Positions 4,532-45,859 of a stretch of 64,000 nucleotides of DNA are shown in pieces; positions within the stretch are counted from its first letter, which is position 1; each line of letters starts with the position of its first letter. Source of the stretch: Eubacteriales bacterium (GTDB taxonomy: Bacteria > Bacillota > Clostridia > Oscillospirales > CAG-272); NCBI GenBank assembly GCA_045593885.1, contig JAZNXN010000022.1, forward strand, positions 22,511 to 86,510, written 5' to 3'. The position numbers and the translations under genes are program-made. The notes under the pieces were generated by a model. It had not been told where the DNA came from. It searched no databases and was given only the letters and a program-made list of their open reading frames with translations.

Positions 4532-6412
4532 ATGGAGCTGAGAGCAAAAGTAGCGGTAATAGGAGCAGGACACGCGGGAATTGAGGCTGCCCTTGCCTCT
4601 GCGCGCCTTGGGCTCGATACCGTTCTGTTCACCATAAATCTCGATTCGGTTGGAAATATGCCCTGCAACCCCTCTATCGGCGGCAGCGGAAAGGGGCATC
4701 TGGTATTCGAGATAGATGCGCTCGGCGGCGAAATGGGCGCGGCGGCTGATGCGGTTACTCTGCAATCGCGCACCTTAAATCTTGGCAAGGGCGCGGCAGT
4801 GCACTCTAAGAGAGTGCAGGCAGACAGAATGCTCTACCGCGCAAAAATGAAGGAAACTATTGAAAAGACCGAAAACCTGCGCCTCATTCAGTCGGAGATA
4901 GTCAAAATAATCACCGAGGCCGACGAAAACGGAAAAAAGCGCGTGACGGGACTCGTCACCCATCTTGATGAGTTATGGCAGGTCAACCGTATCATAATAT
5001 GCTCGGGTACCTACCTTAACGGTGAGATTTTCATAGGGGATAAGGTGTTTTCCAGCGGTCCCGACGGACTTATGCCCGCAAAGGGTTTGTCGGAATCTCT
5101 GCTTGCCGAGGGTATTCGACTGATGAGGTTCAAAACGGGAACGCCCGCCAGAGTTGCGAAGCGCTCGATAGACCTATCCCGCCTCGAAATCCAAGGTGGC
5201 GAGGAATATATAACCCCCTATTCAGAAAACACAGATGCAGCAGCGCTCAACTCAATTGAGCAGATACCCTGCCACATCGTCTATACAAATGCGCGCACGC
5301 ACAAAATTATACTCGACAACATTGACAGAAGCGCAATGTATTCGGGCAACATTCACGGCACAGGTCCGCGCTACTGTCCCTCGATAGAAACCAAGCTTGT
5401 CAGGTTCGCCGACAAGGAGCGTCACCAGCTCTTTATCGAGCCGACGGGCAGGGATAGCGAGGAAATGTATATTCAGGGCTTCAGTACCTCGATGCCCACC
5501 GACGTTCAGTACGATATGCTCCGCTCGCTTGACGGCTTTGAAAACGCAGAAATAATGCGCTACGCCTATGCAATAGAGTACGATTGCATAGATCCCACCC
5601 AGCTTCTGCCCACTCTCGAATTCAAAAACATCGGGGGACTTTACGGCGCAGGACAGTTCAACGGAACCTCGGGCTATGAGGAGGCGGCGGCGCAGGGACT
5701 GGTTGCGGGAATTAACGCCGCACTCGCCGAAAAGGGCGAGTCCCCTATGGTTTTAACCCGAAATTCCTCGTATACGGGAACGCTGATTGACGACCTCGTG
5801 ACCAAGGGCACGGACGAGCCGTACAGGATAATGACCTCGCGCTCGGAATACCGCCTGCTTCTGCGACAGGACAACTGCGATTTGCGCCTGTCGGATATCG
5901 GCTACCGTGTCGGACTTCTGTCCGAGGAAAGATACGCGCGCTTCTGTAAGAAGCGTGATATGATAAATAAGGAAATCGAGAGGATAAAGGGAACGAACAT
6001 AGCCCCCACCGACAAGGTCAACGCGCTTTTGAGGGAGCACGGCTCCTCACCGATTACCAGCGGAATCAAGCTATCCGAGCTTTTGAAGCGCCCCGAGCTT
6101 GACTACGAAACCCTTTCGCCCATAGACGAAAAAAGAGAGCCGCTTCCAAGGGCGGTTGCAAACACCGCGTATATCGAAATAAAGTACGAGGGGTATATCA
6201 AACGGCAGCTTCTGGACGTTGAACGCCTTGAAAAGCTGGAGAGCCGCACCCTCCCCCCCGACCTTGACTACACCTCGATAACAGGGCTTCGTATCGAGGC
6301 GGCGGAAAAGCTCAACGCCATACGCCCCGTCAGCATCGGTCAGGCATCGCGAATCAGCGGTGTCAGCCCCGCCGACATCAGCGTTCTGCTAATCTATTTC
6401 TCAAGGGGATAG
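4532..6412 (+). CDS. mnmG: tRNA uridine 5-carboxymethylaminomethyl modification enzyme MnmG (GidA)
   Basis: FAD motif VIGAGHAGIEAA, GTGPRYCPSIE, and 626 aa with full-length family architecture. Confidence 0.95.
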   Translation: MELRAKVAVIGAGHAGIEAALASARLGLDTVLFTINLDSVGNMPCNPSIGGSGKGHLVFEIDALGGEMGAAADAVTLQSRTLNLGKGAAVHSKRVQADRMLYRAKMKETIEKTENLRLIQSEIVKIITEADENGKKRVTGLVTHLDELWQVNRIIICSGTYLNGEIFIGDKVFSSGPDGLMPAKGLSESLLAEGIRLMRFKTGTPARVAKRSIDLSRLEIQGGEEYITPYSENTDAAALNSIEQIPCHIVYTNARTHKIILDNIDRSAMYSGNIHGTGPRYCPSIETKLVRFADKERHQLFIEPTGRDSEEMYIQGFSTSMPTDVQYDMLRSLDGFENAEIMRYAYAIEYDCIDPTQLLPTLEFKNIGGLYGAGQFNGTSGYEEAAAQGLVAGINAALAEKGESPMVLTRNSSYTGTLIDDLVTKGTDEPYRIMTSRSEYRLLLRQDNCDLRLSDIGYRVGLLSEERYARFCKKRDMINKEIERIKGTNIAPTDKVNALLREHGSSPITSGIKLSELLKRPELDYETLSPIDEKREPLPRAVANTAYIEIKYEGYIKRQLLDVERLEKLESRTLPPDLDYTSITGLRIEAAEKLNAIRPVSIGQASRISGVSPADISVLLIYFSRG

Positions 6413-6615
6413 CGCAGGTCGCTTTTTGAAAAAAGCTCGGCAAAGCCTCTTTCGGGGCTCGCTTGATTTTGAGCAGAAACCGTCGCTTTCGCTGCCGTCG
6501 CCGTACTCAGTACGGCAGAGAGTGAAAACGGCGGTAGTAAACAAAAAAACTGTAATAAATCAAAAATCGCAGATTTTTTCCTTATTCTTGACAAGATATA
6601 AGCTTTAATAAAATT

Positions 6616-6648
6616 AAAAGTGAGGAACCTTTTGTCCCTCACTTTTTT
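6616..6648. terminator. intrinsic terminator hairpin, module T1 of the repeat
   Basis: AAAAGTGAGG (6616-6625) pairs with CCTCACTTTT (6637-6646), followed by TT. The A-tract/T-tract symmetry allows either strand to use it. Confidence 0.75.
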
Positions 6649-6839
6649 GTTTGCGGTTATGGCGAAATGAAGCAGCCCAGGGGCTCGCTTGATTTTGAGC
6701 AAAAACCGCCGCTTTCACTGTCGTCGATGTACTCGGTACGGCAGAGAGTGAAAACGGCGGTAGCAAACAAAAAAATGTAATAACCAAAAATCGCAGATTT
6801 TTTCCTTATTGTCAACGGGATATAGTTTTTAGTAAAATT

Positions 6840-6872
6840 AAAAGTGAGGAACCTTTTGTCCCTCACTTTTTT
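6840..6872. terminator. intrinsic terminator hairpin, module T2 of the repeat; likely serves the SLOG gene on the minus strand
   Basis: The stem and loop are identical to T1: AAAAGTGAGG (6840-6849) pairs with CCTCACTTTT (6861-6870). Confidence 0.75.
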
Positions 6873-6924
6873 GTTTGCGGTTATGCCGAAATGAAGCAGC
6901 CCCTTCAATTTCCCAAATAACCTT

Positions 6925-7377
6925 TTACTCATTGTAATCTGCGAGATTTATAATCTCCTTGCCCCTATGCCTTGCGTACTTATAAGAAGCATAAGCACCA
7001 CCGTAGCAGTGAGTGATATACGCGATAATGAGGTCAGAGCGCTCCATCATCCACCTATTTCTTTGCACTATCGCAAATTTCGGAATAGAATTTTCAATTT
7101 CGGGGTATACCGTAAAATCAAAATCCTGTCTTATATACTCCATTCGCTCATTTGAATAACCGAAAAGATAGGGGGTTACGAAAATGAGGCTTGCGCTTAG
7201 ATGCCTTTCCTTAAATTCTCTGGCGCATACACGGGCAAATCTGTCAAACGCTCCGTATTCACCGAGATAAAAGTCCACCCTTCTGTCGCCTATTCTTTTC
7301 TCAAAAATATCAATCAGTTTTTGCCTATGCACATTACTGCTTGAAAAGCTCGAATGACCGCAAAAGGAAACAATCAT
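6925..7377 (-). CDS. SLOG-superfamily protein (DUF1273 / YpsA-YoqJ-like)
   Basis: Pattern FCGHSSF ... YLGEYGAFDRFARVCA ... IFVTPY ... QRNRWMMERSDLIIAY ... GGAYASYKYARHRGKEIINL matches my memory of DUF1273 proteins. There was no search to confirm it. Confidence 0.55.
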   Translation of the reverse strand: MIVSFCGHSSFSSSNVHRQKLIDIFEKRIGDRRVDFYLGEYGAFDRFARVCAREFKERHLSASLIFVTPYLFGYSNERMEYIRQDFDFTVYPEIENSIPKFAIVQRNRWMMERSDLIIAYITHCYGGAYASYKYARHRGKEIINLADYNE

Positions 7378-7531
7378 AATCAGAATCCCTCACATTTTTG
7401 TTTATCAACATTTTAGCACAGTGCGACAAGGATGTCAAGTGTAAATTGCACTTATATATTATAGTGCTAAAATAGAGTGTATATTTTTGTAAAAACATAG
7501 TGTAAAATATAGGTGTAGGGAGTGATGTAAT

Positions 7532-7702
7532 ATGTTTAAGGTAAAGAAATCGGAGCATAAAAACAAAACATTTAGAATGCCCGTTGACCTTTTGGAAAAA
7601 CTCGAAACCATTGCTCAGGAGCAAGGAATATCACTGAACAACCTTGTTATTCAATGTTGCGAATATGCTGTTGAGCATTTGGATAAACAAGACAAAAATT
7701 GA
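7532..7702 (+). CDS. 56-aa ribbon-helix-helix (Arc/CopG-like) DNA-binding protein
   Basis: RBS AGGGAG lies 9 nt upstream of ATG 7532. Translation: MFKVKKSEHKNKTFRMPVDLLEKLETIAQEQGISLNNLVIQCCEYAVEHLDKQDKN. The beta-strand FRMPVDL plus two helices is the RHH signature. It is below the ORF-track cutoff. Confidence 0.6.
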   Translation: MFKVKKSEHKNKTFRMPVDLLEKLETIAQEQGISLNNLVIQCCEYAVEHLDKQDKN

Positions 7703-7752
7703 GAAAAGGTCGCTTTTTGAAAAAAGCTCGGCAAAAACTTCATAATACGAAT

Positions 7753-7779
7753 AACGGATGCGGCTGCATCCGTTTTTTG
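7753..7779 (+). terminator. intrinsic terminator
   Basis: AACGGATGC (7753-7761) pairs with GCATCCGTT (7766-7774), followed by TTTTG. Confidence 0.75.
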
Positions 7780-7843
7780 TAACCCCTTGGGGTGTTTTTG
7801 CATATAATCATATCAAGAACATTTTACTCTCGGAGGTTTTTGT

Positions 7844-8002
7844 ATGAGGTCAAGGCTGTGCTGGAAGGCGGCAATCGGTATAGGCGTGTTTTCCTTCGGG
7901 CTCGGGGTGCTCATATCCTTTTTTCTTCCGGAGGCGGTGCTCGTGGTTCTGGAGGCTATCGTTCTGATTGCGCTCGGTATAATCTGCTATGCTCAAAGGT
8001 GA
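7844..8002 (+). CDS. 52-aa small membrane protein (two predicted TM helices), unknown function
   Basis: GGAGG lies 7 nt upstream of ATG 7844. Translation: MRSRLCWKAAIGIGVFSFGLGVLISFFLPEAVLVVLEAIVLIALGIICYAQR. It is below the ORF-track cutoff and sits 4 nt upstream of spoVM. Confidence 0.45.
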   Translation: MRSRLCWKAAIGIGVFSFGLGVLISFFLPEAVLVVLEAIVLIALGIICYAQR

Positions 8003-8006
8003 CTGT

Positions 8007-8090
8007 ATGAAAATTGTTTTGGTTCGTTCCCCGAGGTTTCTATCCCCCATTCTACGCAGGCTGTTCAAAATCAAAAAGTCAAAAAGGTGA
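8007..8090 (+). CDS. spoVM: stage V sporulation protein M (SpoVM-like 27-aa amphipathic peptide)
   Basis: MKIVLVRSPRFLSPILRRLFKIKKSKR aligns with B. subtilis SpoVM MKFYTIKLPKFLGGIVRAMLGSFRKD, sharing the pattern MK....[KR].P[KR]FL..I.R. A terminator follows directly. Confidence 0.7.
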   Translation: MKIVLVRSPRFLSPILRRLFKIKKSKR

Positions 8091-8096
8091 TAAAGG

Positions 8097-8123
8097 CCGC
8101 CCGATAAAAAGGGCGGTTTTTTT
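8097..8123 (+). terminator. intrinsic terminator after spoVM
   Basis: CCGCCC (8097-8102) pairs with GGGCGG (8111-8116), followed by T7. Confidence 0.75.
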
Positions 8124-8161
8124 CTGAATACAAGCAACGCGGGCGGTCAAAAATGATTTTG

Positions 8162-8190
8162 TTGACATATCGCGCGTTTTTTGGTAAAAT
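8162..8190 (+). promoter_or_regulatory. sigma-A-type promoter for the MFS/GDPD genes
   Basis: TTGACA (8162-8167), a 17-nt spacer, then TAAAAT (8185-8190). Confidence 0.55.
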
Positions 8191-8222
8191 ATAGGTGTTT
8201 ATTAAAACAAGGAGATATTAAA

Positions 8223-9500
8223 ATGAAGCTGAATTACAAAAGAACAATCCTCGTTGGATTTGCATTCTTTCTCATCTCTGCCTTCTGGCAGGCGTACGAC
8301 ACGGTAGTTCCCCTCATCCTGACAGACAAATTCCATATGAAGCAGGCGTATTCGGGTATAATTATGGCGCTGGATAACATATTCGCGCTGGTTATGCTGC
8401 CGATATTCGGCGCTCTGTCCGACAAAACGAGAACAAAATGGGGCAGACGTACACCCTATATAACAATAGGTGCTGTTTGCGCGTCGGTTGCCTTCTCCTT
8501 CCTCGGAATTATAGACAACCTCACCCTTTTCATAATCGTTTTGCTTCTGGCGCTGACCTCGATGGCAACCTTCCGTTCACCTGCGGTTGCGCTCATGCCT
8601 GACGTAACGATAAAGCCGTTGCGCTCAAAGGGCAACGCGGTAATCAACCTCATGGGCACAGCGGGCGGTATACTTGTTTTGCTTCTCACGAAGGTTTTTG
8701 GAACGGACAAGGCTGACAACACCGAGTTCGCAGGTTACATCCTCACCGTTGCGGCGGTTATGATTGGCGCGCTCATCATATTCCTTTTAACCGTCAGAGA
8801 GCCCCTTTGGGTGAAGGAAATGGAGGAAAAGACCGAGGAGCTCGGCTGCGACGAGGAGGTCAAGGAGCGCGAGCACGAGGGCGGCAAGCTTTCGCGCGCG
8901 CAGATGATATCCTTCATCTTCATTCTTCTGTCTGTATTCCTTTGGTTCTTCGGCTACAACGCAGTAACGACAAAATACTCGGTATACGCAAAGGACTTTC
9001 TGAAGGTTTCCTATTCCACAACCCTGCTGATAGCTCAGGCGGCGGCAATAATCTCCTACCTGCCTGTCGGTATGATAGCGAGCAAAATAGGCAGAAAGAA
9101 AACCATTCTTGCAGGTGTGGTTATGCTCTTTGCAGCATTCTTCGGCGCGGCGTTTATCCGTGAGGGCACGGCAACCTTCCTGATGTACCCCCTCTTTGCT
9201 CTTGCCGGAATTGCGTGGGCAACTATAAACGTAAACAGCTTCCCTATGGTCGTTGAGCTGGCGAAGGATTCCGACTGCGGAAGATACACTGGCTTCTACT
9301 ACACAGCATCAATGACGGCGCAGATACTCACCCCTGTTATTTCGGGCTTCCTTATGGATAATCTCGGCTTCTCGTCGCTGTTCCCCTACGCCGCAGTATT
9401 CGCAGGTCTTGCCTTCTTCACAATGCTTATGGTCAAGCACGGCGATTCAAGGCCGGGGGTAAAGCAGAGTGTTCTCGAAAGCCTTGATGTAGAGGATTAA
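8223..9500 (+). CDS. MFS transporter (SLC45/GPH-like sugar or glycerophosphodiester symporter)
   Basis: 12-TM profile with the motif GALSDKTRTKWGRRTPY in the loop 2-3 position. I chose the start at ATG 8223 behind AAGGAG; the ORF track starts at 8181. Confidence 0.75.
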   Translation: MKLNYKRTILVGFAFFLISAFWQAYDTVVPLILTDKFHMKQAYSGIIMALDNIFALVMLPIFGALSDKTRTKWGRRTPYITIGAVCASVAFSFLGIIDNLTLFIIVLLLALTSMATFRSPAVALMPDVTIKPLRSKGNAVINLMGTAGGILVLLLTKVFGTDKADNTEFAGYILTVAAVMIGALIIFLLTVREPLWVKEMEEKTEELGCDEEVKEREHEGGKLSRAQMISFIFILLSVFLWFFGYNAVTTKYSVYAKDFLKVSYSTTLLIAQAAAIISYLPVGMIASKIGRKKTILAGVVMLFAAFFGAAFIREGTATFLMYPLFALAGIAWATINVNSFPMVVELAKDSDCGRYTGFYYTASMTAQILTPVISGFLMDNLGFSSLFPYAAVFAGLAFFTMLMVKHGDSRPGVKQSVLESLDVED

Positions 9501-9502
9501 AA

Positions 9503-35627: not shown

Positions 35628-35652
35628 GCTTCCAAAGAAGCTTTTCAAAATT

Positions 35653-35685
35653 AAAAGTGAGGCACTTTATGTACCTCACTTTTTT
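35653..35685 (+). terminator. intrinsic terminator after dnaJ, module T3 of the repeat family
   Basis: AAAAGTGAGG (35653-35662) pairs with CCTCACTTTT (35674-35683), followed by TT. The stems are identical to T1 and T2 but the loop differs. Confidence 0.85.
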
Positions 35686-35713
35686 GTTTACGTTTATACC
35701 AAAAGGCGCAATC

Positions 35714-35786
35714 GGGCACGCGTATTCTGAGTGGGTTTTTGCCACCGCAACGCTCTAACCCATAGGGCGCGTATATTTTGAGTAGA
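35714..35786 (+). repeat. two degenerate copies of the 22-nt box of the intergenic repeat family
   Basis: GGGCACGCGTATTCTGAGTGGG (35714-35735) and GGGCGCGTATATTTTGAGTAGA (35765-35786), compared with GGGGCTCGCTTGATTTTGAGCA at 6454 and 6680. Confidence 0.45.
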
Positions 35787-35874
35787 TTTTTGTGTTCTCC
35801 GACACGAAGGCGTAGTCTACCTACATCAAGCTTGGTCGCAAACGCACGAAGCTACCAAAATATGAATCCCTACA

Positions 35875-38715
35875 TTATTTTGCAAAGAAGCTTGCCATAA
35901 GTCTTTGCGCTATCGGGTTTTCCTCGCGCAAATCTACCTGACAGATAATATATCTCTTTCCGTTATAGACCTTCTCTGCTGCGGCGAGCGTTTCGCCCCA
36001 GTCACCGTTTTCGTCGGTGTTGCCCGAAATGAGTATCGGGGTGAAGCCCTCTGCCGTAAAGGTTGCGTAAAGCAGGGGGGTTATCATATCCTCTTTCTTG
36101 TTATAGAAATAGGAAACGTCCTTCGGTCTCAGCTCAGAAACCGCGGGATGTCCGCTCTTTCTCGATGCGAAGTGGAGGGGGAGCATTCCGCATTCCTTAA
36201 CCTTTACCCTCTCGCCCGCAATCTCATACTCACCGGGTGCAAGCATAGTAATCAGCTCAACTGCGTCGTTCTTTTCGTACGAAACAGGAGCGAATACCTC
36301 TATACCCTGTGTGTTATGCGTAATTTCCTTACCGCTTGCATCAACCAAAATTGCCTTGAGGGTATACCTCTCTCTGTCAGAAACTTGGGGAGCTGCGAAC
36401 ACCGCGCTTGACGAATATGCCGCCTCACACACGTTTATTTTCGCAGGAGATGAGCCGTTCATAACCAATGCTCCGCTCTCGTCGTAAAGCTCGTATACCA
36501 TCTTAAAATCCTTGCCCGAGAGCTGAGTGTCGTTACAGATATGAGCCTCAATCTTTACCTTTTCGCCTGCATAATAGGTGAATCGGTCTGTACGCAGGCT
36601 GACGAGCACCGGCTCGAGCGCATTTCTGTACGCAAAAAACGCAGGCTTCGGATTTCTTCTGCAATCCATAATTGTCTTCATCCAGCCGCTCGGCCACGCA
36701 TCTATAAAGAGATGGATAGCAAAGGTTATCATGAGGTTGTTGCGCCTGAACGCCTCGGTCATTATCGAGGTCGCAAATGCCTGATGCGCGTGGCTCTCCT
36801 TAACCCAATCTTCCATCGTGTCCTGCTTGTCGTAGAAGAAGTGATAGAAGTTACCCGTCTGCGCGTTTACTATATTGCCGGGGAAGAAGGGCTCGGTCAG
36901 CCAATCCTTCGGATAGCATTCACGCATAACGTCGGGGAAGTCGAGTCCCTCTGCGCCAAACTCACCGCAGCCGCAGTACCAGCCGGGCTTAATGCTCAGC
37001 CAATAGCCTCTGTGGAGTCTGCCTATATCTATTCCGTGTCCGTTATACCACATAGGATAGCAGTGGTTGTCGGGCAGGCTCTCGCACGGCGGATCGTAGT
37101 CGCCGTCAATATGCTTTATAACTCTGTCGGGGTTGTTCAGAAGCACCACGTGATCGCAGGAGGTAAAGAAGGTTGCCAGCTCATCACGGGTGAGGTGTCT
37201 GTGCGGCTCGTTCTTAGCATTCGGGAACGGCTCGTTGATGTAGGAAACGACGGTGTTACAGGGGTGATTTCTCACCATTCTCTCCATTTCCTCTGCCTGA
37301 CGGACACCCTCTGCAAATTTATTCCTTCTCATACAGCCGAAGAGAGGAAGGTCGGACTGCGTCATAAGTCCGAGCATATCGCAGTACCGGTATATCTCGT
37401 CCTGAACGGGACGCTGGGTGAGACGCAAGAAGTTCATATTGCAGAGCTTTGCAAGCAGAATATCGTCAATAAGCTGCTCAAAATCCCCGCGGAGCACGTC
37501 CTGCTGCTCAAAGCCCATCGTGTTCGCACCGCGCAGGCGTATCTTTCTGCCGTTGAGGTAGAACATACCCTTCGGGCTGCTCTCGTTATCCTCGGTGAAG
37601 GTTCTCATACCGAAGGTTGATTTTTTTCTGTCAACCGTACTGCCGCCCACTACAAGCTCAAGCTGAAGCTGATACAGATAGGGGGTATCGAGATCCCATA
37701 TTTTCGCATCGGGAATATCAACGGTAAACTTATAGACGTTTATACCGAACTGCGCGGGCATGGGAATACCGCTGCCGAGGCTGTCCTTCACCTGAGCCTC
37801 TGTCAGGCTGTCGCCGCGTCCGACGGTGCGTACAGTCAGAGGGGTATAGGACATATTCTCGAAAACAGCTCCGTCAAAATTCTGTCCGTAGAGCGAAATA
37901 TTGAAGGAAAGCTCTGTCTTGTTATGGTCGGCATTCTGTATCTCTGCCCATATTTCTGCCTTACTCTCGGAAACGAGAGGGCGCACGAATATATCGTAGA
38001 TATGTATTCTGCTTCGTATTTCAACGCCAACCTTATTGTATATACCCATTCCGGGAGGGCAATGGTGCCAGCCTATCAGCGGATCGTCCCAGCCAAGACC
38101 TGTTGCGGCATACAGCTTGTCACCCTCGAGAGATTTTACCGAGGCAAACGCGTTACCGCCGTATATGCAGTCGTTTTCAACGACAACTCTGAGGGTGTTT
38201 TCTCCTGCCTTAACCGCAAAGCCTATATCGAACTCAAACGGAGAGAAAAAGCCCTCGTGCTTGCCGACGCACTCGCCGTTTACGTATACGGTTGCGTAGT
38301 AGTCAACACCGCCAAAGCAGATATAATATGCCCGTCCCTCATCAATTTTATCGAGAGTGAAGGTGGATTCATACACCTTCCTTGCTACACCCTGAGGTCC
38401 GCCGTAATGGGGAAGCGTTATCTTCTCCTCACCGTCAAGAACGAAATCGGTTATCTCGATTCTTTCGGTCATACACTCAATTTTCGGTGCTTTATTTTCA
38501 AGGTAGGGCGCATATTTTGCCCTCTCTCTGCCAAGAGCCGCATAAAGCTCCTCTCGGGTATCCATCTTCTTTTCAGTCGCTACGGGAGTCATTCCCATAG
38601 ATGCCCTCAGCTTACATGCCCTCTCCCTTATTTTCACAGGGGATGGGTCATATAACAGCTCTTTTCTGCCGCCTATACCGTCAGCGGCAATATTAGCAAA
38701 TACGTCGTTTGCCAT
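35875..38715 (-). CDS. glycoside hydrolase family 2 protein (946 aa, no signal peptide)
   Basis: A GH2 sugar-binding-domain pattern (FGGVDYYATVYVNGECVGKHEGFFSPFEFDI..GENTLRVVV) is followed by a TIM-barrel region (LRGANTMGFE). Confidence 0.75.
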   Translation of the reverse strand: MANDVFANIAADGIGGRKELLYDPSPVKIRERACKLRASMGMTPVATEKKMDTREELYAALGRERAKYAPYLENKAPKIECMTERIEITDFVLDGEEKITLPHYGGPQGVARKVYESTFTLDKIDEGRAYYICFGGVDYYATVYVNGECVGKHEGFFSPFEFDIGFAVKAGENTLRVVVENDCIYGGNAFASVKSLEGDKLYAATGLGWDDPLIGWHHCPPGMGIYNKVGVEIRSRIHIYDIFVRPLVSESKAEIWAEIQNADHNKTELSFNISLYGQNFDGAVFENMSYTPLTVRTVGRGDSLTEAQVKDSLGSGIPMPAQFGINVYKFTVDIPDAKIWDLDTPYLYQLQLELVVGGSTVDRKKSTFGMRTFTEDNESSPKGMFYLNGRKIRLRGANTMGFEQQDVLRGDFEQLIDDILLAKLCNMNFLRLTQRPVQDEIYRYCDMLGLMTQSDLPLFGCMRRNKFAEGVRQAEEMERMVRNHPCNTVVSYINEPFPNAKNEPHRHLTRDELATFFTSCDHVVLLNNPDRVIKHIDGDYDPPCESLPDNHCYPMWYNGHGIDIGRLHRGYWLSIKPGWYCGCGEFGAEGLDFPDVMRECYPKDWLTEPFFPGNIVNAQTGNFYHFFYDKQDTMEDWVKESHAHQAFATSIMTEAFRRNNLMITFAIHLFIDAWPSGWMKTIMDCRRNPKPAFFAYRNALEPVLVSLRTDRFTYYAGEKVKIEAHICNDTQLSGKDFKMVYELYDESGALVMNGSSPAKINVCEAAYSSSAVFAAPQVSDRERYTLKAILVDASGKEITHNTQGIEVFAPVSYEKNDAVELITMLAPGEYEIAGERVKVKECGMLPLHFASRKSGHPAVSELRPKDVSYFYNKKEDMITPLLYATFTAEGFTPILISGNTDENGDWGETLAAAEKVYNGKRYIICQVDLREENPIAQRLMASFFAK

Positions 38716-41252: not shown

Positions 41253-41286
41253 GCCGCTTGTCTTTTGTTGACGGGCGGTTTTTTAT
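41253..41286 (+). terminator. intrinsic terminator after the transporter gene
   Basis: GCCGCTTGTC pairs with GACGGGCGG, followed by TTTTTTATT. The terminator abuts the first parS. Confidence 0.6.
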
Positions 41287-41302
41287 TGTTTCACGTGAAA
41301 CA
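41287..41302. other. parS centromere-like site 1
   Basis: TGTTTCACGTGAAACA is a perfect 16-bp palindrome matching the Firmicute parS consensus TGTTNCACGTGAAACA. Confidence 0.9.
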
Positions 41303-41444
41303 CTTAAAAATCATACCAAAATAGCCTAAGTATTATAACAAATAGTTAACCCAAGTTAATGTTTTCATCACACAAAATGCTCGATTTATGTCAAAATCAG
41401 CAATTTACTCTTTTACAAAATCACAAAGTAATTCCAAAAAGGAT

Positions 41445-41460
41445 TGTTTCACGTGAAACA
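41445..41460. other. parS centromere-like site 2
   Basis: TGTTTCACGTGAAACA, identical to site 1. Confidence 0.9.
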
Positions 41461-41537
41461 AATCAAATTTTGCACCAAAAAACAGCAAATATCTTCCCCG
41501 CCGAGTTTCTGAAAAGCAAAAAGGGACGAAAAAGCCG

Positions 41538-41553
41538 TGTTTCACGTGAAACA
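41538..41553. other. parS centromere-like site 3
   Basis: TGTTTCACGTGAAACA, identical to site 1, 94 nt upstream of the parA start. Confidence 0.9.
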
Positions 41554-41646
41554 ATTGTAAAAAATTAAATTTTCGCTCATTTTTGTTTGACAATCACCTA
41601 TATTAATGGTATAATTGTATCATAAAACCATAAAAGGAGTGACAAA

Positions 41647-42408
41647 ATGGGCTCAATTGTTTCATTTGCAAACCAGAAGGGCGGCGTTGGAAAATCAACC
41701 TCTGCTATAAACATAGCTGCTCAGATAGCCAAAAACGGCAAAAAAGTGCTTCTTGTTGACCTTGACCCACAGGGAAATACAACGAGCGGCGTTGGAATCA
41801 GCAAAAACAAGGTAAAATCATCTATATACGACGTTATGATAGGGCATAGCACCGTAAAAGACGTTATAATATCCACAGAATACAAAAATCTTTCATTAAT
41901 CCCTTCAAATATTTCACTTGTAGGCGCAGAATTTGAGCTGCGCGAGCTTGAAAACCGTGATTTCTGCATTAAAAATGCGCTCACAACGGTACGCGACGAG
42001 TACGATTACATATTTATTGACTGTCCCCCTACCCTTGGTCTGCTCACAATCAATGCGCTGACCGCTTCCGATGGCGTAATTGTACCTATGCAGTGCGAAT
42101 TTTTTGCCCTCGAGGGACTTTCTCAGCTAATGCTTACCATTAAAAAGGTACGTCAGTATTACAACCACAACCTCGAAATCACGGGAATACTGCTCACAAT
42201 GTTTAATTCCCGCTTCATTCTCACAAACCAAGTAGTTGCAGAGCTCGAAAAGCACTACGCGGGCAAGCTCTTTGACCAGAGAATTTCCCGTTCCGTCAAG
42301 CTCTCGGAGGCTCCCGGCTTTGGCGCTCCGATATGCTATTTCGCGCAGTATTCGAAGGGTAGCCTCGAGTATAAGAAGCTGTGCGACGAAATCACCCTCA
42401 GGATATAA
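41647..42408 (+). CDS. parA: chromosome partitioning ATPase ParA (Soj)
   Basis: The deviant Walker A motif NQKGGVGKST and ParA family length. Confidence 0.92.
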   Translation: MGSIVSFANQKGGVGKSTSAINIAAQIAKNGKKVLLVDLDPQGNTTSGVGISKNKVKSSIYDVMIGHSTVKDVIISTEYKNLSLIPSNISLVGAEFELRELENRDFCIKNALTTVRDEYDYIFIDCPPTLGLLTINALTASDGVIVPMQCEFFALEGLSQLMLTIKKVRQYYNHNLEITGILLTMFNSRFILTNQVVAELEKHYAGKLFDQRISRSVKLSEAPGFGAPICYFAQYSKGSLEYKKLCDEITLRI

Positions 42409-42518: not shown

Positions 42519-43403
42519 ATGGCAAAATTTTCAGGGCTCGGAAAGGGCATTGACGCAATATTTCTTGAAAATAATATAGATAACACAGAGAAGGGCAACA
42601 TAACCGTTCTCCCCATAAATCAGATAGAAATCAAGACTAATCAGCCGAGAAAGTATTTTGACGAGGATGCGCTGAAATCTCTTTCGGAATCGATAGAGCA
42701 GCACGGACTCATTCAGCCGATAGTTGTGCGCGAGCTCGCAAACGGCAGATATCAGATAGTCGCAGGCGAGAGGCGCTTCCGTGCGTCGAAAATGGCAGAG
42801 CTTACCGAAATTCCCGCAATAATCATTGATGCGGACGAGCTCAAGGCATCTTCACTCGCGCTTATCGAGAACATACAGAGAGAGGACCTCAATCCCCTCG
42901 AGGAAGCTATGGCATACAAGTCGCTGGCAGAGCGATTCGATATGACTCAGGAGCAGATTTCCTCGCAAATGGGCAAGAGCCGCAGCGCCGTAGCAAACAC
43001 CCTGCGTCTTCTTGACCTTCCCGACGAGCTTCTTTCCTTCGTTGCATCGAGGGAGCTTTCCGCAGGCCACGCGCGTGCGCTTCTCGGCCTTGACGACGAA
43101 GCGGATATGATACTTCTTGCCAACAGAGTAATCGAGGACGAGCTTTCGGTTCGAGCAACCGAGGCAGCGGTAAAGAAAATAAATCAGCAGAAGCTCGCCA
43201 TAGACGAAATCACTCCCCCAACCGAGGTAGTGGTTGACTATGCCCGTGAGCTTGAGCTCAAAATGATGAGCACACTCGGCAGACGCGTAAAGATACAGAG
43301 CAAGGGCTCAAAGAAATGCGTTACCCTCTTTTACGAGGACAATGAGGACCTCGAAAGCCTGCTCAAAACCATATGCGGAGAGCGTTTCGTTGACGAAATT
43401 TAA
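42519..43403 (+). CDS. parB: chromosome partitioning protein ParB (Spo0J)
   Basis: ParB box GERRFRAS, the HTH region and IENIQREDLNPLEEA. Confidence 0.92.
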   Translation: MAKFSGLGKGIDAIFLENNIDNTEKGNITVLPINQIEIKTNQPRKYFDEDALKSLSESIEQHGLIQPIVVRELANGRYQIVAGERRFRASKMAELTEIPAIIIDADELKASSLALIENIQREDLNPLEEAMAYKSLAERFDMTQEQISSQMGKSRSAVANTLRLLDLPDELLSFVASRELSAGHARALLGLDDEADMILLANRVIEDELSVRATEAAVKKINQQKLAIDEITPPTEVVVDYARELELKMMSTLGRRVKIQSKGSKKCVTLFYEDNEDLESLLKTICGERFVDEI

Positions 43404-44035: not shown

Positions 44036-44050
44036 TATTGTTTTTCAAAA

Positions 44051-44382
44051 ACGCAGTGTGTATTGAGACAGGTTGTGTCATCGCGCCCTGACGGTGTATA
44101 AAATACTCTGAGAAAAGCGAGGGCTGCCATGCTCGAAACACAAAGTTCAAGGCACGAGGCCTCAATTGACAAAGCCAAGGCGCACGTATTTTGGATGGGT
44201 TTCGTCGTTTTTCGCCCCGAAGCTGTATAGAATACAGCGAGATTTGGGAGAAAACGGCGGAAGACACCCGAAGCTCAAAGCCAAGGCGCACGTATTTTGG
44301 ATGGGTTTCGTCGTTTTTTGCCCCGAAGCTGTATAGAATACAGCGAGATTTGGGAGAAAACGGCGGAAGACGCCAAAATACG
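44051..44382 (+). repeat. tandem array (one degenerate plus two near-identical 106-bp units) of the intergenic structured repeat family
   Basis: The units starting at 44171 and 44277 are identical over 95 nt except for one C/T change. An upstream degenerate unit starts at about 44051. Confidence 0.85.
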
Positions 44383-44387
44383 AAGCC

Positions 44388-45212
44388 TTACTTCTTCTTG
44401 AATTCCTTCATTCCGTTAGTACTTCCACCGTCGCAGAGAACGTCTACTCCGGCAAGATAGCCGTTGCGCTCGTCCGCAACGGTTGCAAGGGCGTAGCCGA
44501 GCTCCTCGGGCTTGCCCATTCTTTCCTCGCAGGAGAAGGGGATGAGCATTCCGCCATCCTTTGCCTCAAGGTTGCCCATGTCGGTTGCTATCAGTCCGGG
44601 GCTGAGAGATACTACTCTTATGCCCTTTTTGCCGTACTCGTACGCGCACTTTTTCGCATACCATACAACAAAATTCTTGGAGAGTGAATATGCAAAGCCC
44701 GAGCGCTGATAATCACCCTTTGCAAGACTTGCCCTTTTCAGAAGCTTCTTTACGAATTTTTCCTCGTCGGTGTCCGCGAGGGCATATGCCTTCTTCGGAA
44801 TGATGAACGAGGGAAGAATATAAGCGGAATTCGATGATACGTCAACGATAACACTGCCACTGTTCATAACCTTGGAAAATTCCTGATTTATGTAAACGGT
44901 TCCGAGGGCGTTTACTCTGACTATCTTCTCTCCGTCTGCCATCGCAGGCGAAAGACCTGCCGAATTAATTACGTTCTTAACCTCGCCGAGCGAAGCCGCA
45001 AAGCTCACCAGCTCCTTCACGCTCTCGCGGTCAGAGGTGTCGCACGCCTTCGCATAAGCCTCAAAGCCGAGCACCTTGAGCTGCTCAACCGCGCCCTCAA
45101 GCTTCTTTACCGTTCTGCCTGCCAGAACTATAATCTTGTCCTTCGGCATCAGCTTTGCAGCCTCAAGGCCCATTCCGCTTCCGCCACCGGTTATTACACA
45201 TACATTTGCCAT
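44388..45212 (-). CDS. SDR-family oxidoreductase
   Basis: ATG 45212 lies behind AAGGAG. Cofactor motif ITGGGSGMG and a catalytic YxxxK region (YSLSK). Confidence 0.85.
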   Translation of the reverse strand: MANVCVITGGGSGMGLEAAKLMPKDKIIVLAGRTVKKLEGAVEQLKVLGFEAYAKACDTSDRESVKELVSFAASLGEVKNVINSAGLSPAMADGEKIVRVNALGTVYINQEFSKVMNSGSVIVDVSSNSAYILPSFIIPKKAYALADTDEEKFVKKLLKRASLAKGDYQRSGFAYSLSKNFVVWYAKKCAYEYGKKGIRVVSLSPGLIATDMGNLEAKDGGMLIPFSCEERMGKPEELGYALATVADERNGYLAGVDVLCDGGSTNGMKEFKKK

Positions 45213-45214
45213 TT

Positions 45215-45859
45215 TTATATCTCCTTGTTTTTTATTGTTATTGAAGCCGAGTATTTTTTGCCCTCGCCATCGGTGTAGGGCAGAGTTAAAAACGAGGCAT
45301 CGCACGCGGTTGTGTCGAGCGCGCGCACCGAGCATACACCCTCGCCCGTGAGCTTGGCGTACGCTTCTTTTTTAGTCCATACGCCGAAAAAGTCCTCTTT
45401 TTGCTCGCTGACCGAAAAGAATCGCGAGGCTATCCTGTCGGTATCCTTTTTTTCATCGGCAAGCTCGACGTCAGCGCCGACGGGCACGTCGCTCAGCGCC
45501 GCAAAAATCACGCCGTGACTGTGCGAAAGGCTGAAATGCGGCTCTGTATCCGCAAAATGCGGCTTCCCTCGCTCTGTGATGAAAATTTGCGGCAGTGGGA
45601 GCATTTCAAGAGATGAAAAGGATAGAATTTTTACCCTTTCCTCTCCAATATCCATTTCCGCTTCGGTTTCGGCGGCAAGCTCACCGTTTCTGTACGCATA
45701 GAGCATACTGAGCAGGGCGAGCGCGGCTACGTGTCTGTCCCTGTCGTCCCTTTGCTTTCTTTCGTCCGCGCGCCGCTTTTCCTCGTTTGTTAGATTTTTG
45801 CAGAGCTCATCGGTCCTTCCGAAAAGCTGTTTCATATCAAAAGCAGAAATATATATCAT
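45215..45859 (-). CDS. 4'-phosphopantetheinyl transferase (Sfp-type)
   Basis: FSLSHSHG, GADVE and WTKKEAYAKLTGEG motifs. ATGA overlap with the rnj stop. Confidence 0.75.
   Translation of the reverse strand: MIYISAFDMKQLFGRTDELCKNLTNEEKRRADERKQRDDRDRHVAALALLSMLYAYRNGELAAETEAEMDIGEERVKILSFSSLEMLPLPQIFITERGKPHFADTEPHFSLSHSHGVIFAALSDVPVGADVELADEKKDTDRIASRFFSVSEQKEDFFGVWTKKEAYAKLTGEGVCSVRALDTTACDASFLTLPYTDGEGKKYSASITIKNKEI

Follow-up and report, generated by a model that had tools for sequence, protein, structure and literature searches.

The BOX elements of Streptococcus pneumoniae (boxA - boxB(n) - boxC) are modular, with terminal repeats that pair, and are tightly base-paired when transcribed, SPRITEs are terminator-like and enriched at the 3' ends of convergent coding sequences, and some MITEs (miniature transposable elements with inverted repeats) of the ERIC/Correia/RUP type supply terminators, promoters or RNase sites (PMC3049150). 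REPs are single hairpins of 20-40 bp that carry an unpaired GTAG/CGTC tag, occur mostly as inverted dimers and were not reported in Firmicutes by the survey PMC3733652. Here we describe a structured intergenic repeat found in 64,000 nucleotides of DNA from a Eubacteriales bacterium (NCBI GenBank assembly GCA_045593885.1, contig JAZNXN010000022.1, positions 22,511 to 86,510), a stretch hereafter called the window. Its positions 6454-6903 hold a tandem whose two units are probably complete copies of a new non-coding, non-autonomous, BOX/SPRITE/MITE-like family of interspersed repeats in uncultured Clostridia (Eubacteriales).

Two complete units downstream of mnmG

The tandem is located between the stop codon of mnmG (4532-6412, + strand) and a convergent open reading frame (ORF) of 150 amino acids (6925-7377, - strand). 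Tandem Repeats Finder reported it at 6454-6902 with 2.0 copies, a period of 224 and 90% matches, and it consists of two head-to-tail units of ~225 nt.

6454-6679, + strand: long-form copy A1, a complete unit (GGGG...GCAGCCCA); Tandem Repeats Finder, covariance model match at 6453-6552 (77.8 bits), match of a hidden Markov model of the 3' half at 6534-6680, and full-length alignment to copies from other genomes.
6680-6903, + strand: long-form copy A2, a complete unit (GGGG...GCAGCCCC); Tandem Repeats Finder, covariance model match at 6679-6778 (72.5 bits) and hidden Markov model match at 6760-6905.

The ORF list puts the 3' end of A2 at a distance of 22 nt from the convergent stop codon. A previous sequence-only reading of the window had assigned to each unit a 22-nt box, a helix P1 enclosing a hairpin P2, an A-rich linker and a terminator module. 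The box, GGGGCTCGCTTGATTTTGAGCA, indeed occurs exactly twice, at 6454 and 6680 (chance expectation 0), and the arms proposed for P1 (6479-6485 with 6529-6535) and P2 (6500-6506 with 6510-6516) are both present at these positions in the minimum-free-energy fold, in which P1 extends further (z = -4.1). The terminator module AAAAGTGAGG-N11-CCTCACTTTT was found at 6616 and 6840, with a third copy after dnaJ at 35653. It is also correct that, compared with A1, unit A2 replaces the T.G wobble of P1 by a C-G pair and has a weakened P2 (GATGTAC/GTACGGC).

ORFs running through the unit are not conserved in other genomes, and the substitutions track base-pair covariation rather than codon structure. We therefore rejected a type I toxin-antitoxin or small-ORF repeat, which requires a conserved short hydrophobic ORF with a ribosome-binding site.

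Full-length copies in other genomes and in metagenomes

A scan of 185,579 species genomes with the exact pattern CGTCGYTTT-N25-55-GAAAACGGCGGWAG returned 20 loci (retrieved loci are cited below by L numbers), 13 of which are true copies that align with the window unit from the first to the last base and come, without exception, from metagenome-assembled genomes (MAGs) of Clostridia/Eubacteriales, at least seven in number. The other seven loci were chance matches, six of them from GC-rich phyla and one (L020) from another Clostridia MAG. One MAG carries four near-identical copies, differing by a handful of substitutions over ~250 nt, which lie at unrelated loci and show sharp similarity boundaries; with their unrelated flanks, these copies define the ends of the element, which starts with (A)GTTTGATAAGGGG or GGGG and ends with CCCC. 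When metagenomes were scanned with the 5' box only, 14 contigs were obtained, and in these the box was always followed by the core and never by an ORF. Half of these matches (7 of 14) were within ~150 nt of a contig end, as expected for a repeat that breaks metagenome assemblies. In all, at least 30 copies were retrieved.

The element contains no conserved ORF. All-against-all blastp of the ORFs within 3 kb of the 13 copies revealed no shared partner protein, but only spurious ORFs spanning the element and an unrelated ATPase-like pair. No autonomous parent or candidate transposase was found in ~50 retrieved loci, no RAYT gene in the 2-22 kb read around each copy, and no TnpA, TnpB or reverse-transcriptase gene beside any copy. 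Since blastn of the spacer against phage and plasmid collections gave no match and two pattern scans of viral contigs gave 0 matches, there is no support for an origin from a phage or plasmid. The MnmG, the 150-amino-acid ORF and the ribbon-helix-helix (RHH) ORF of the window were not on record in exact-protein look-ups.

In two metagenomic copies, at L041 (~1372-1450) and L037 (~2556-2631), the element is broken in or beside its core by another sequence of ~80 nt (GTAGCG[TA]AGCGGC...GTGACCGAGTCGCAACGAGA), present in opposite orientations and without an Rfam match. A second small element appears to insert into the repeat at these loci.

Architecture of the unit

Of the parts distinguished by the sequence-only reading, the helix-plus-hairpin core is real; the 22-nt box, A-rich linker and terminator module do not stand alone but are strands of helices P0, P4 and P5. 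In the folding models the unit is one integrated fold. The long form (~215-255 nt) comprises six helices on the given strand, including a three-way junction that is closed by P4, an A-tract paired with a U-tract, and houses P3 and P5. In A1 these helices are placed as follows.

6454-6475, + strand: 5' strand of P0 (the 22-nt box), pairing with 6661-6678; minimum-free-energy fold, and a duplex of -27.6 kcal/mol between the box of A2 and its own tail.
6479-6535, + strand: core, P1 (6479-6493 with 6521-6535, one bulge) around P2 (6500-6506 with 6510-6516); minimum-free-energy fold and 28-copy alignment.
6537-6549, + strand: 5' strand of P4, GTAAACAAAAAAA (the A-rich linker), pairing with 6643-6654; RNAalifold columns 93-102/215-224 and minimum-free-energy folds.
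6562-6578, + strand: P3 hairpin, AAAAATC-GCA-GATTTTT, with GAAATCC-GNA-GGATTTC in other genomes; RNAalifold columns 118-124/129-135 with compensatory changes, and minimum-free-energy folds.
6620-6654, + strand: P5 terminator hairpin, GTGAGGAAC-CTTTT-GTCCCTCAC, then the U-tract TTTTTTGTTTGC, doubling as 3' strand of P4; sequence and terminator scan.
6661-6678, + strand: 3' strand of P0, the tail GGCGAAATGAAGCAGCCC; minimum-free-energy folds and duplex energies.

The P0-P5 layout was shared between RNAalifold (11 copies) and independent minimum-free-energy folds (12 copies). A short form of ~105 nt, represented in the window by the units B1, B2 and C1, consists of P0, P1 and P2 only and has no P5; when intact, it folds into a single long hairpin of -48 to -49 kcal/mol.

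Conservation of the fold

RNAalifold revealed compensatory changes in P1, P2, P3 and P4, and in P4 both sides had changed in 2-5 sequences at six of ten pairs. For the core, a covariance model of box and core was used to align 28 distinct copies from the window, genomes and metagenomes, a set that includes copies not selected by their core, i.e. those from the 14 metagenome contigs found by the 5' box alone and from contigs found through relatives of MnmG and DnaJ. In this alignment, 90.9% of the cells hold standard pairs, compared with 35-47% when the partners are slid by 1-3 columns, both sides have changed at 11 of 21 pairs (8 of 14 in P1, 3 of 7 in P2), and the observed covariation was reached by none of 500 shuffles on any of five measures. 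The outer pairs of P1 are invariant in the genome-scan copies because the search pattern demanded them, and are variable in the other copies. The earlier proposal that structure is kept while sequence drifts is thus borne out.

P0 behaves alike. Every copy tested forms the P0 duplex (-14 to -31 kcal/mol), with a mean of -20.0 kcal/mol for cognate box and tail vs -13.0 kcal/mol for non-cognate combinations, and in L002 box and tail are entirely different yet fully complementary (-30.8 kcal/mol). Two irregularities are conserved as well: a single bulged pyrimidine in P1, found across subfamilies (window 6486, 6488-6490 and equivalents), and a G/G mismatch in P0 (6465 with 6669), shared by the window units and distant MAG copies despite fully exchanged flanking pairs. 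Both are possible recognition features.

Rfam 15 at gathering thresholds gave 0 matches over the whole window and over five metagenome contigs. At permissive thresholds the best match was the L20 leader (25.7 bits vs a gathering threshold of 58.7), due to a generic hairpin plus terminator, and at E<=1 there were 0 matches for one MAG copy and for the B units of the window. The element hence belongs to no RNA family covered by these searches, in line with the sequence-only reading, and a tRNA/tmRNA scan found none.

Strand preference and the predicted internal terminator

The folding energy calculated for RNA favored the given strand over its complement in 18 of 19 full-length copies, by a mean of 10.9 kcal/mol (Wilcoxon p = 8e-6, for copies that are not phylogenetically independent), which agrees with the earlier view that the fold is read from the + strand. 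That view had been based on wobble pairs, and the core does contain 56 G.T vs 19 A.C oppositions; however, 35 of the 56 G.T come from two fixed positions, which weakens the argument, and since these two positions dominate, we replaced the counting by the paired comparison of energies.

The stem of P5 is G+C-rich, 9 bp long with one internal A.C mismatch, and spans 6620-6642, followed by TTTTTTG. Judged by its sequence, a G+C-rich hairpin followed by a T-run, P5 is a predicted intrinsic (Rho-independent) terminator. On the + strand this was read directly from the sequence (stem, then T6), as the terminator scan reports P5 on the - strand only, at 6646-6616 and 6870-6840, with the tail AATTTTAT. 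MAG-type copies have a U-rich tract after P5 on the + strand only; in the window's genus, owing to an A-run upstream of P5, either strand looks like a terminator. No canonical terminator separates mnmG from A1, and the convergent 150-amino-acid ORF has a strong predicted promoter (7438-7410), with P5 of A2, on the - strand, at most 55 nt beyond the ORF. A1 may thus be co-transcribed as the 3' untranslated region (UTR) of mnmG, with the transcript ending at P5 of A1, while P5 of A2, read on the - strand, would terminate the transcript of the convergent ORF; the folded 5' domain would then travel with the 3' end of the mRNA. A promoter inside the unit (TTGACA-N17-TAAAAT) was considered and rejected, as it was scored in A2 only, in the form TTGTCA-18-TAAAAT, and is not conserved in other genomes.

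Other copies in the window

Run with filters off, the covariance model gave five copies in the window, at 6453-6552, 6679-6778, 44175-44278, 44281-44384 and 35762-35866, and each of them is on the + strand. Two degenerate fragments (35714-35764 and ~44050-44177) and a 3' half-element (35646-35713) come in addition, so that a previous count of six or more copies was slightly generous. The related 106-bp tandem noted before is real (44170-44371, 98% matches by Tandem Repeats Finder), and has the arms GCTGTAT/ATACAGC and TTTCGTCG/CGGCGGAA ascribed to it.

35646-35713, + strand: 3' half of a long form (P5, U-tract and tail), placed as terminator of dnaJ; direct-repeat family D3 (86% identity) and hidden Markov model match at 35646-35708 (E = 1e-10).
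35714-35764, + strand: mini-unit C0, with a box-like start and no core; weak nhmmer match, and alignment with unit b of relatives.
35765-35870, + strand: short-form unit C1 (P0+P1+P2), structurally decayed; covariance model match of 26 bits (E = 3e-4, model not trained on C1) and 87% identity to the orthologous unit c of L029.
44050-44177, + strand: possible degenerate unit B0 (box-like GTGTATTGAGACAGG; TTGTGT/ACACAA; GTAT-AAA-ATAC), recognized by eye only and not detected by the covariance model.
44178-44283, + strand: short-form unit B1; Tandem Repeats Finder, covariance model match of 65.5 bits, fold of -40.6 kcal/mol (+) vs -27.4 (complement).
44284-44387, + strand: short-form unit B2; covariance model match of 62.7 bits, fold of -49.3 kcal/mol (+) vs -32.7 (complement).

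Both loci run up to a convergent gene: between C1 and the stop codon of GH2 (35875-38715, - strand) there are 4 nt, and the last base of B2 is directly followed by the stop codon of the SDR gene (44388-45335, - strand). The region before locus B also holds three copies of TGTTTCACGTGAAACA, a canonical parS (41285-41309, 41443-41467 and 41536-41560), a short way upstream of parA (41647-42408) and parB (42519-43403). With mnmG also present, these features suggest an origin-proximal position of the window.

Placement at gene ends and hairpins

A hairpin precedes 13 of 15 MAG-type copies, 10-15 nt upstream; it may be an ordinary terminator (L012, L043), the closing helix of an earlier copy (L034, L006) or a conserved mini-hairpin, GGCTGTCTCAAATG-N4-CATTTGAGACAGCC, that looks like a collapsed copy with P0 only. 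The sequence just 3' of the element is often T-rich, and in L012 and L043 T-runs flank the element on both sides and together would rebuild a normal terminator tail, which suggests a placement inside the T-tract of the terminator. The 3' end of the element is 0-22 nt from a convergent stop codon at the window loci A, B and C as well as at L021 and L027, and within 30 nt of one at 7 of 11 MAG loci. Placement in a T-tract would account for this abutment, because the T-tract of a bidirectional terminator is the last thing before the convergent stop. Similarly, head-to-tail arrays are explicable by the fact that each copy ends in a hairpin resembling the target. In general, the units are located at the 3' ends of genes, typically between convergent ones and shortly after an existing hairpin, either a terminator or another copy, and therefore build up head-to-tail.

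A conserved palindrome of ~31 nt, GGCTGTCTCAAATG-CAAA-ATTTGAGACAGCC (or a GGGGTGTCTC... variant), precedes most MAG-type copies. It is situated ~15-45 nt upstream of the element in L001, L010, L018, L033, L037, L039, L041, L044, L045 and L046, is joined to it by a conserved linker (..AGTTTGATAA) and resembles the P0 ends and the P5 stem. This palindrome could be either a copy that has collapsed or a distinct REP-like family acting as the preferred target.

Instability at orthologous loci

In the contigs of relatives (MnmG 92% and DnaJ 96% identical), gene order is preserved at all three window loci but element content is not, as units have been gained, lost, inverted and decayed between close relatives. 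The dnaJ-GH2 spacer of the window measures 247 nt (half a long form, C0 and C1); that of L029, with units a, b and c, is 301 nt long, and that of L027/L028, with units a to d, 407 nt. These differences occur among strains with DnaJ 96-100% identical. In the spacer between the genes for a 178-amino-acid protein and the SDR, the window has B0-B1-B2 on the + strand, whereas L027 and L029 have a single long form, on the - strand, and one additional small gene. The flank downstream of mnmG is uninterrupted in relatives and holds no element; in the relatives' L021, a long form fills the whole 241-nt gap between the convergent trkH and a flavoprotein gene. Decay is seen in C1 (-30 kcal/mol) and in unit c of L027 (-27 kcal/mol), vs -49 kcal/mol for the intact orthologue, unit c of L029.

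The mnmG locus shows further peculiarities. A perfect 29-bp direct repeat, AGGTCGCTTTTTGAAAAAAGCTCGGCAAA (family D14), at 6416-6444 and 7707-7735 (+ strand) brackets 1,262 bp, a block (6445-7706) with the tandem, the 150-amino-acid ORF (- strand; only a weak match to phrog_289) and a 56-amino-acid Arc-like RHH repressor (+ strand). In L021 the 3' flank of mnmG is uninterrupted and matches the window from the second copy of the 29-bp repeat onward, which gives the bracketed block the look of an insertion accompanied by a duplication of 29 bp. In L027 and L029, part of the interior of the long form (CGCTTTTTGAAAAAAGCT..GCAAAAAC) is similar to the 29-mer. In L025 (11894-11928), a relative with an 80% identical MnmG, the GDPD and RlmL genes follow 35 nt after mnmG; in the window the mnmG-GDPD interval is ~3 kb (6413-9502) and contains the tandem, two small ORFs, a 52-amino-acid ORF and an MFS transporter gene (8181-9500).

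At L030 (2065-2901), the dnaJ-GH2 spacer is 823 nt long and repeats the final ~270 nt of dnaJ together with its terminator and unit a; in this single metagenome scaffold the junction falls exactly after the box GGGCGCACGGATTTTG. Either the duplication is genuine, and the box then marks a breakpoint, or the assembly is chimeric.

Observations at variance with a simple mobile repeat

Several observations weigh against the interpretation as a BOX/SPRITE/MITE-like repeat: (i) the element has two independent domains with covariation in every helix, which is more elaborate than the palindromes of typical MITEs and would also fit a functional RNA; (ii) the 3' strand of P0 and the distal half of the 3' strand of P4 are downstream of the U-tract of P5, so that an RNA terminated at P5 cannot form the whole fold, which needs read-through RNA or single-stranded DNA (ssDNA); (iii) no target-site duplication was detected in 15 copies examined with either candidate 5' boundary; (iv) where L027 has gained unit d, the end of GH2 is locally divergent, its last 300 nt (L027 11542-11841 vs L029 11436-11735) being 86% identical, compared with 95% over GH2 as a whole, ~95-98% for the remainder of GH2 and 97% for dnaJ; and (v) C1 and the orthologous unit c of L029 are 87% identical, whereas four-fold degenerate sites are 54-68% identical between the window and relatives. 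From the sequence comparison, point (iv) suggests that unit d was imported by homologous recombination, in a tract spanning the gene end and adjacent units, rather than inserted; homologous recombination would then be at least one route of spread. Point (v) weakly suggests constraint on C1 at a fixed locus, given that C1 is partly decayed and that ordinary intergenic regions reach ~77-86% in gap-tolerant global alignments, which inflate identity and make it uninformative as a neutral baseline.

Alternative explanations

Group IIC introns are structured RNAs that lie immediately downstream of intrinsic-terminator hairpins, in the orientation of the terminator, and make no target-site duplication; their insertion after intrinsic terminators was reportedly described by Robart, Seo and Zimmerly in 2007. 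A comparable explanation for the present element is a strand-specific element, mobile by way of ssDNA or RNA, that homes 3' of hairpins or terminators, by means of an HUH/Y1 enzyme in the manner of REP-RAYT or IS200/IS605 or by group IIC-like retro-mobility, and whose fold is the substrate of the enzyme. We consider it unlikely, but keep it as the main rival on account of the strands beyond the terminator, the strand asymmetry and the lack of a duplication. With P0 and P4 completed by sequence past the internal terminator, the fold is whole only in ssDNA or read-through RNA; the asymmetry in 18 of 19 copies is accompanied by two conserved G.T positions; and the position 10-15 nt after a hairpin, the missing target-site duplication and the head-to-tail arrays speak for it as well. 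TTGAT or TTAAT, moreover, precedes many MAG copies; IS200/IS605-derived elements have a conserved target of 4-5 nt 5' of their left end, and TTGAT is the target of ISDra2.

On the other hand, no RAYT, TnpA, TnpB or reverse-transcriptase gene was found next to any copy. IS200/IS605 elements, including the derived PATE/omega-RNA type, carry similar hairpins at their two ends and have no terminal inverted repeats, whereas the end hairpins of our element are unlike each other and its paired ends look like such repeats; the Rfam IS605-orfB and HEARO models gave no match in the window. The unpaired GTAG or CGTC tag of REPs (PMC3733652) is likewise missing. A group IIC intron proper was rejected, as the element has no 5'/3' consensus (e.g. 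no 5' GUGYG motif), no domain V, no reverse-transcriptase ORF and no Rfam group II match, and at 105-255 nt is 2-8 times too small. Such introns measure at least ~400 nt and have a catalytic triad in domain V and a branch A in domain VI. It is also improbable that the family represents a new class of hairpin- or terminator-homing element in which the six-helix fold, as an ssDNA intermediate or a read-through RNA, is the active species, either recognized by an enzyme or acting as a guide or scaffold. Arrays would in that case arise as the closing helix of each copy re-creates the target, and the family would be a small non-autonomous counterpart, in Clostridia, to group IIC introns or REP-RAYT systems.

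A second rival takes the repeats as gene copies of a multi-copy structured non-coding RNA, a 3'-UTR module or small RNA serving the host, for example in binding a protein or protecting 3' ends. The strong covariation of all helices, the conserved + strand terminator and the identity of the orthologous C1 unit relative to four-fold sites point in this direction, as does L021, where the element starts no more than ~15 nt from the stop codon of a co-directional gene and fills the whole 241-nt spacer, and so must be the 3' UTR and terminator of that gene. We nevertheless regard this explanation as having a low probability, because no promoter is conserved (the TTGACA/TAAAAT-like match of A2 is absent from other genomes), because short-form arrays come after the terminator that the upstream gene itself has and would mostly be transcribed as the complement, because truncated, decayed and collapsed copies are common, and because the neighboring genes are unrelated and the content of orthologous loci is unstable.

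Riboswitch-controlled antisense RNAs are known in Clostridium, Listeria and Enterococcus. A riboswitch-like attenuator that gates read-through of P5, and thereby controls antisense transcription into the abutted convergent gene, would agree with the short distance (0-22 nt) to convergent stop codons and with the succession of a structured domain and a terminator, which resembles an aptamer with its expression platform. It is, however, very improbable: the convergent genes (GH2, SDR, TrkH, hypothetical) are functionally unrelated, no promoter is present, P5 is lacking in the short forms, near-identical copies in a single genome are not riboswitch-like, and the abutment is simply explained by insertion into the T-tract of a shared terminator. 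Finally, the absence of any family, i.e. an ordinary terminator region duplicated locally and recently (the units are 90% identical) with chance likenesses elsewhere, can be practically dismissed in view of full-length homologues in at least seven MAGs and 14 metagenome contigs, covariance model scores of 56-110 bits and further loci within the window itself.

Three other candidates were rejected: a Tn3-derived miniature element, considered for the GGGG...CCCC ends, as there is no 5-bp duplication and the imperfect repeats are only ~17-22 nt long; an integron attC site, considered for the adjacency to stop codons and the single-strand fold, as the flanking genes are syntenic core genes and R''/R' boxes are lacking; and a CRISPR-like or type III antitoxin array, considered for the direct repeats, as the spacing is irregular (48, 50, 105 and 104 nt) and there is no co-oriented gene downstream.

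Significance of the family

The interpretation that we prefer, a BOX/SPRITE/MITE-like interspersed repeat, leaves a role for the fold: it would be a feature needed by the mobilizing or recombination machinery, one that keeps the transcribed element harmless or useful, or both. Its unusual combination of features makes the family a good system to ask why MITE-like bacterial repeats are selected to fold, and on which molecule. It adds a well-supported, covariation-rich structured repeat to the poorly charted uncultured Clostridia of gut and rumen, for which no catalogue of REP, BOX or ERIC-type elements is known; the family lacks an Rfam model, and its covariance model would improve the annotation of intergenic regions and 3' UTRs in Clostridia MAGs. 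The element also accounts for breaks of metagenome assemblies at gene ends, and implies that terminators between convergent genes can come from exchangeable repeat modules.

Comparison with known elements

Among the identities offered by the sequence-only reading (a REP/BIME-like element, a protein-binding 3'-UTR module or a small RNA), the REP/BIME-like one is the closest in kind, although the element is not a REP in the strict sense. As with REPs and BIMEs, the copies are extragenic, lie downstream of genes, between convergent or co-directional ORFs, form arrays and have strand-specific hairpins with stem covariation between subfamilies (PMC3733652). Unlike them, the units are 105-255 nt long, have several helices and are arranged head-to-tail, and even the smallest complete unit, of ~105 nt, has three nested helices. 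Furthermore, CGTCG is paired inside P1 (alignment columns 29-33), and GTAG follows the 3' arm (CGGCGGTAG) rather than preceding the stem.

The element has several properties of a MITE, being 105-255 nt long, non-coding, multi-copy at unrelated loci and furnished with terminal inverted repeats. Of a MITE-type end, the finding that according to the sequence-only reading would reclassify the element, one half was found, namely the imperfect terminal inverted repeat formed by P0, and the other half, a target-site duplication or a parent insertion sequence, was not found in the copies and loci examined. In being small, non-coding, highly base-paired, bounded by terminal inverted repeats and probably co-transcribed with flanking genes, the family resembles ERIC, Correia, RUP and the MITE-like bcr1 of the Bacillus cereus group. 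These, however, consist of one long palindrome, have defined target duplications (TA, TTTAT) and in several cases a proposed parent insertion sequence, none of which was found here. The likeness to group IIC introns lies in the structured fold, the lack of a target-site duplication and the position just downstream of terminator stem-loops, in the same orientation (13 of 15 copies after a hairpin).

BOX is similar to our family in that both are non-coding, intergenic and multi-copy, possess pairing end modules and a variable interior, differ in size with their module content and vary in copy content between strains. There is no sequence similarity between them, they belong to different bacterial classes, and BOX makes target-site duplications, of which none were seen in the Clostridia family; the interior of the latter consists of two structured domains, one of them with an intrinsic terminator, and is not a simple tandem of one module. 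SPRITE, in turn, is a single 18-bp duplex followed by a U-rich tract, whereas P5 is one helix inside a fold of 215-255 nt with paired ends, and the short form does without a terminator hairpin altogether. By these analogies, the family may be said to unite the behaviors of BOX and SPRITE in one element, in an unusual combination of paired ends, two covarying domains, an internal terminator whose U-tract takes part in a long-range helix, and placement after hairpins.

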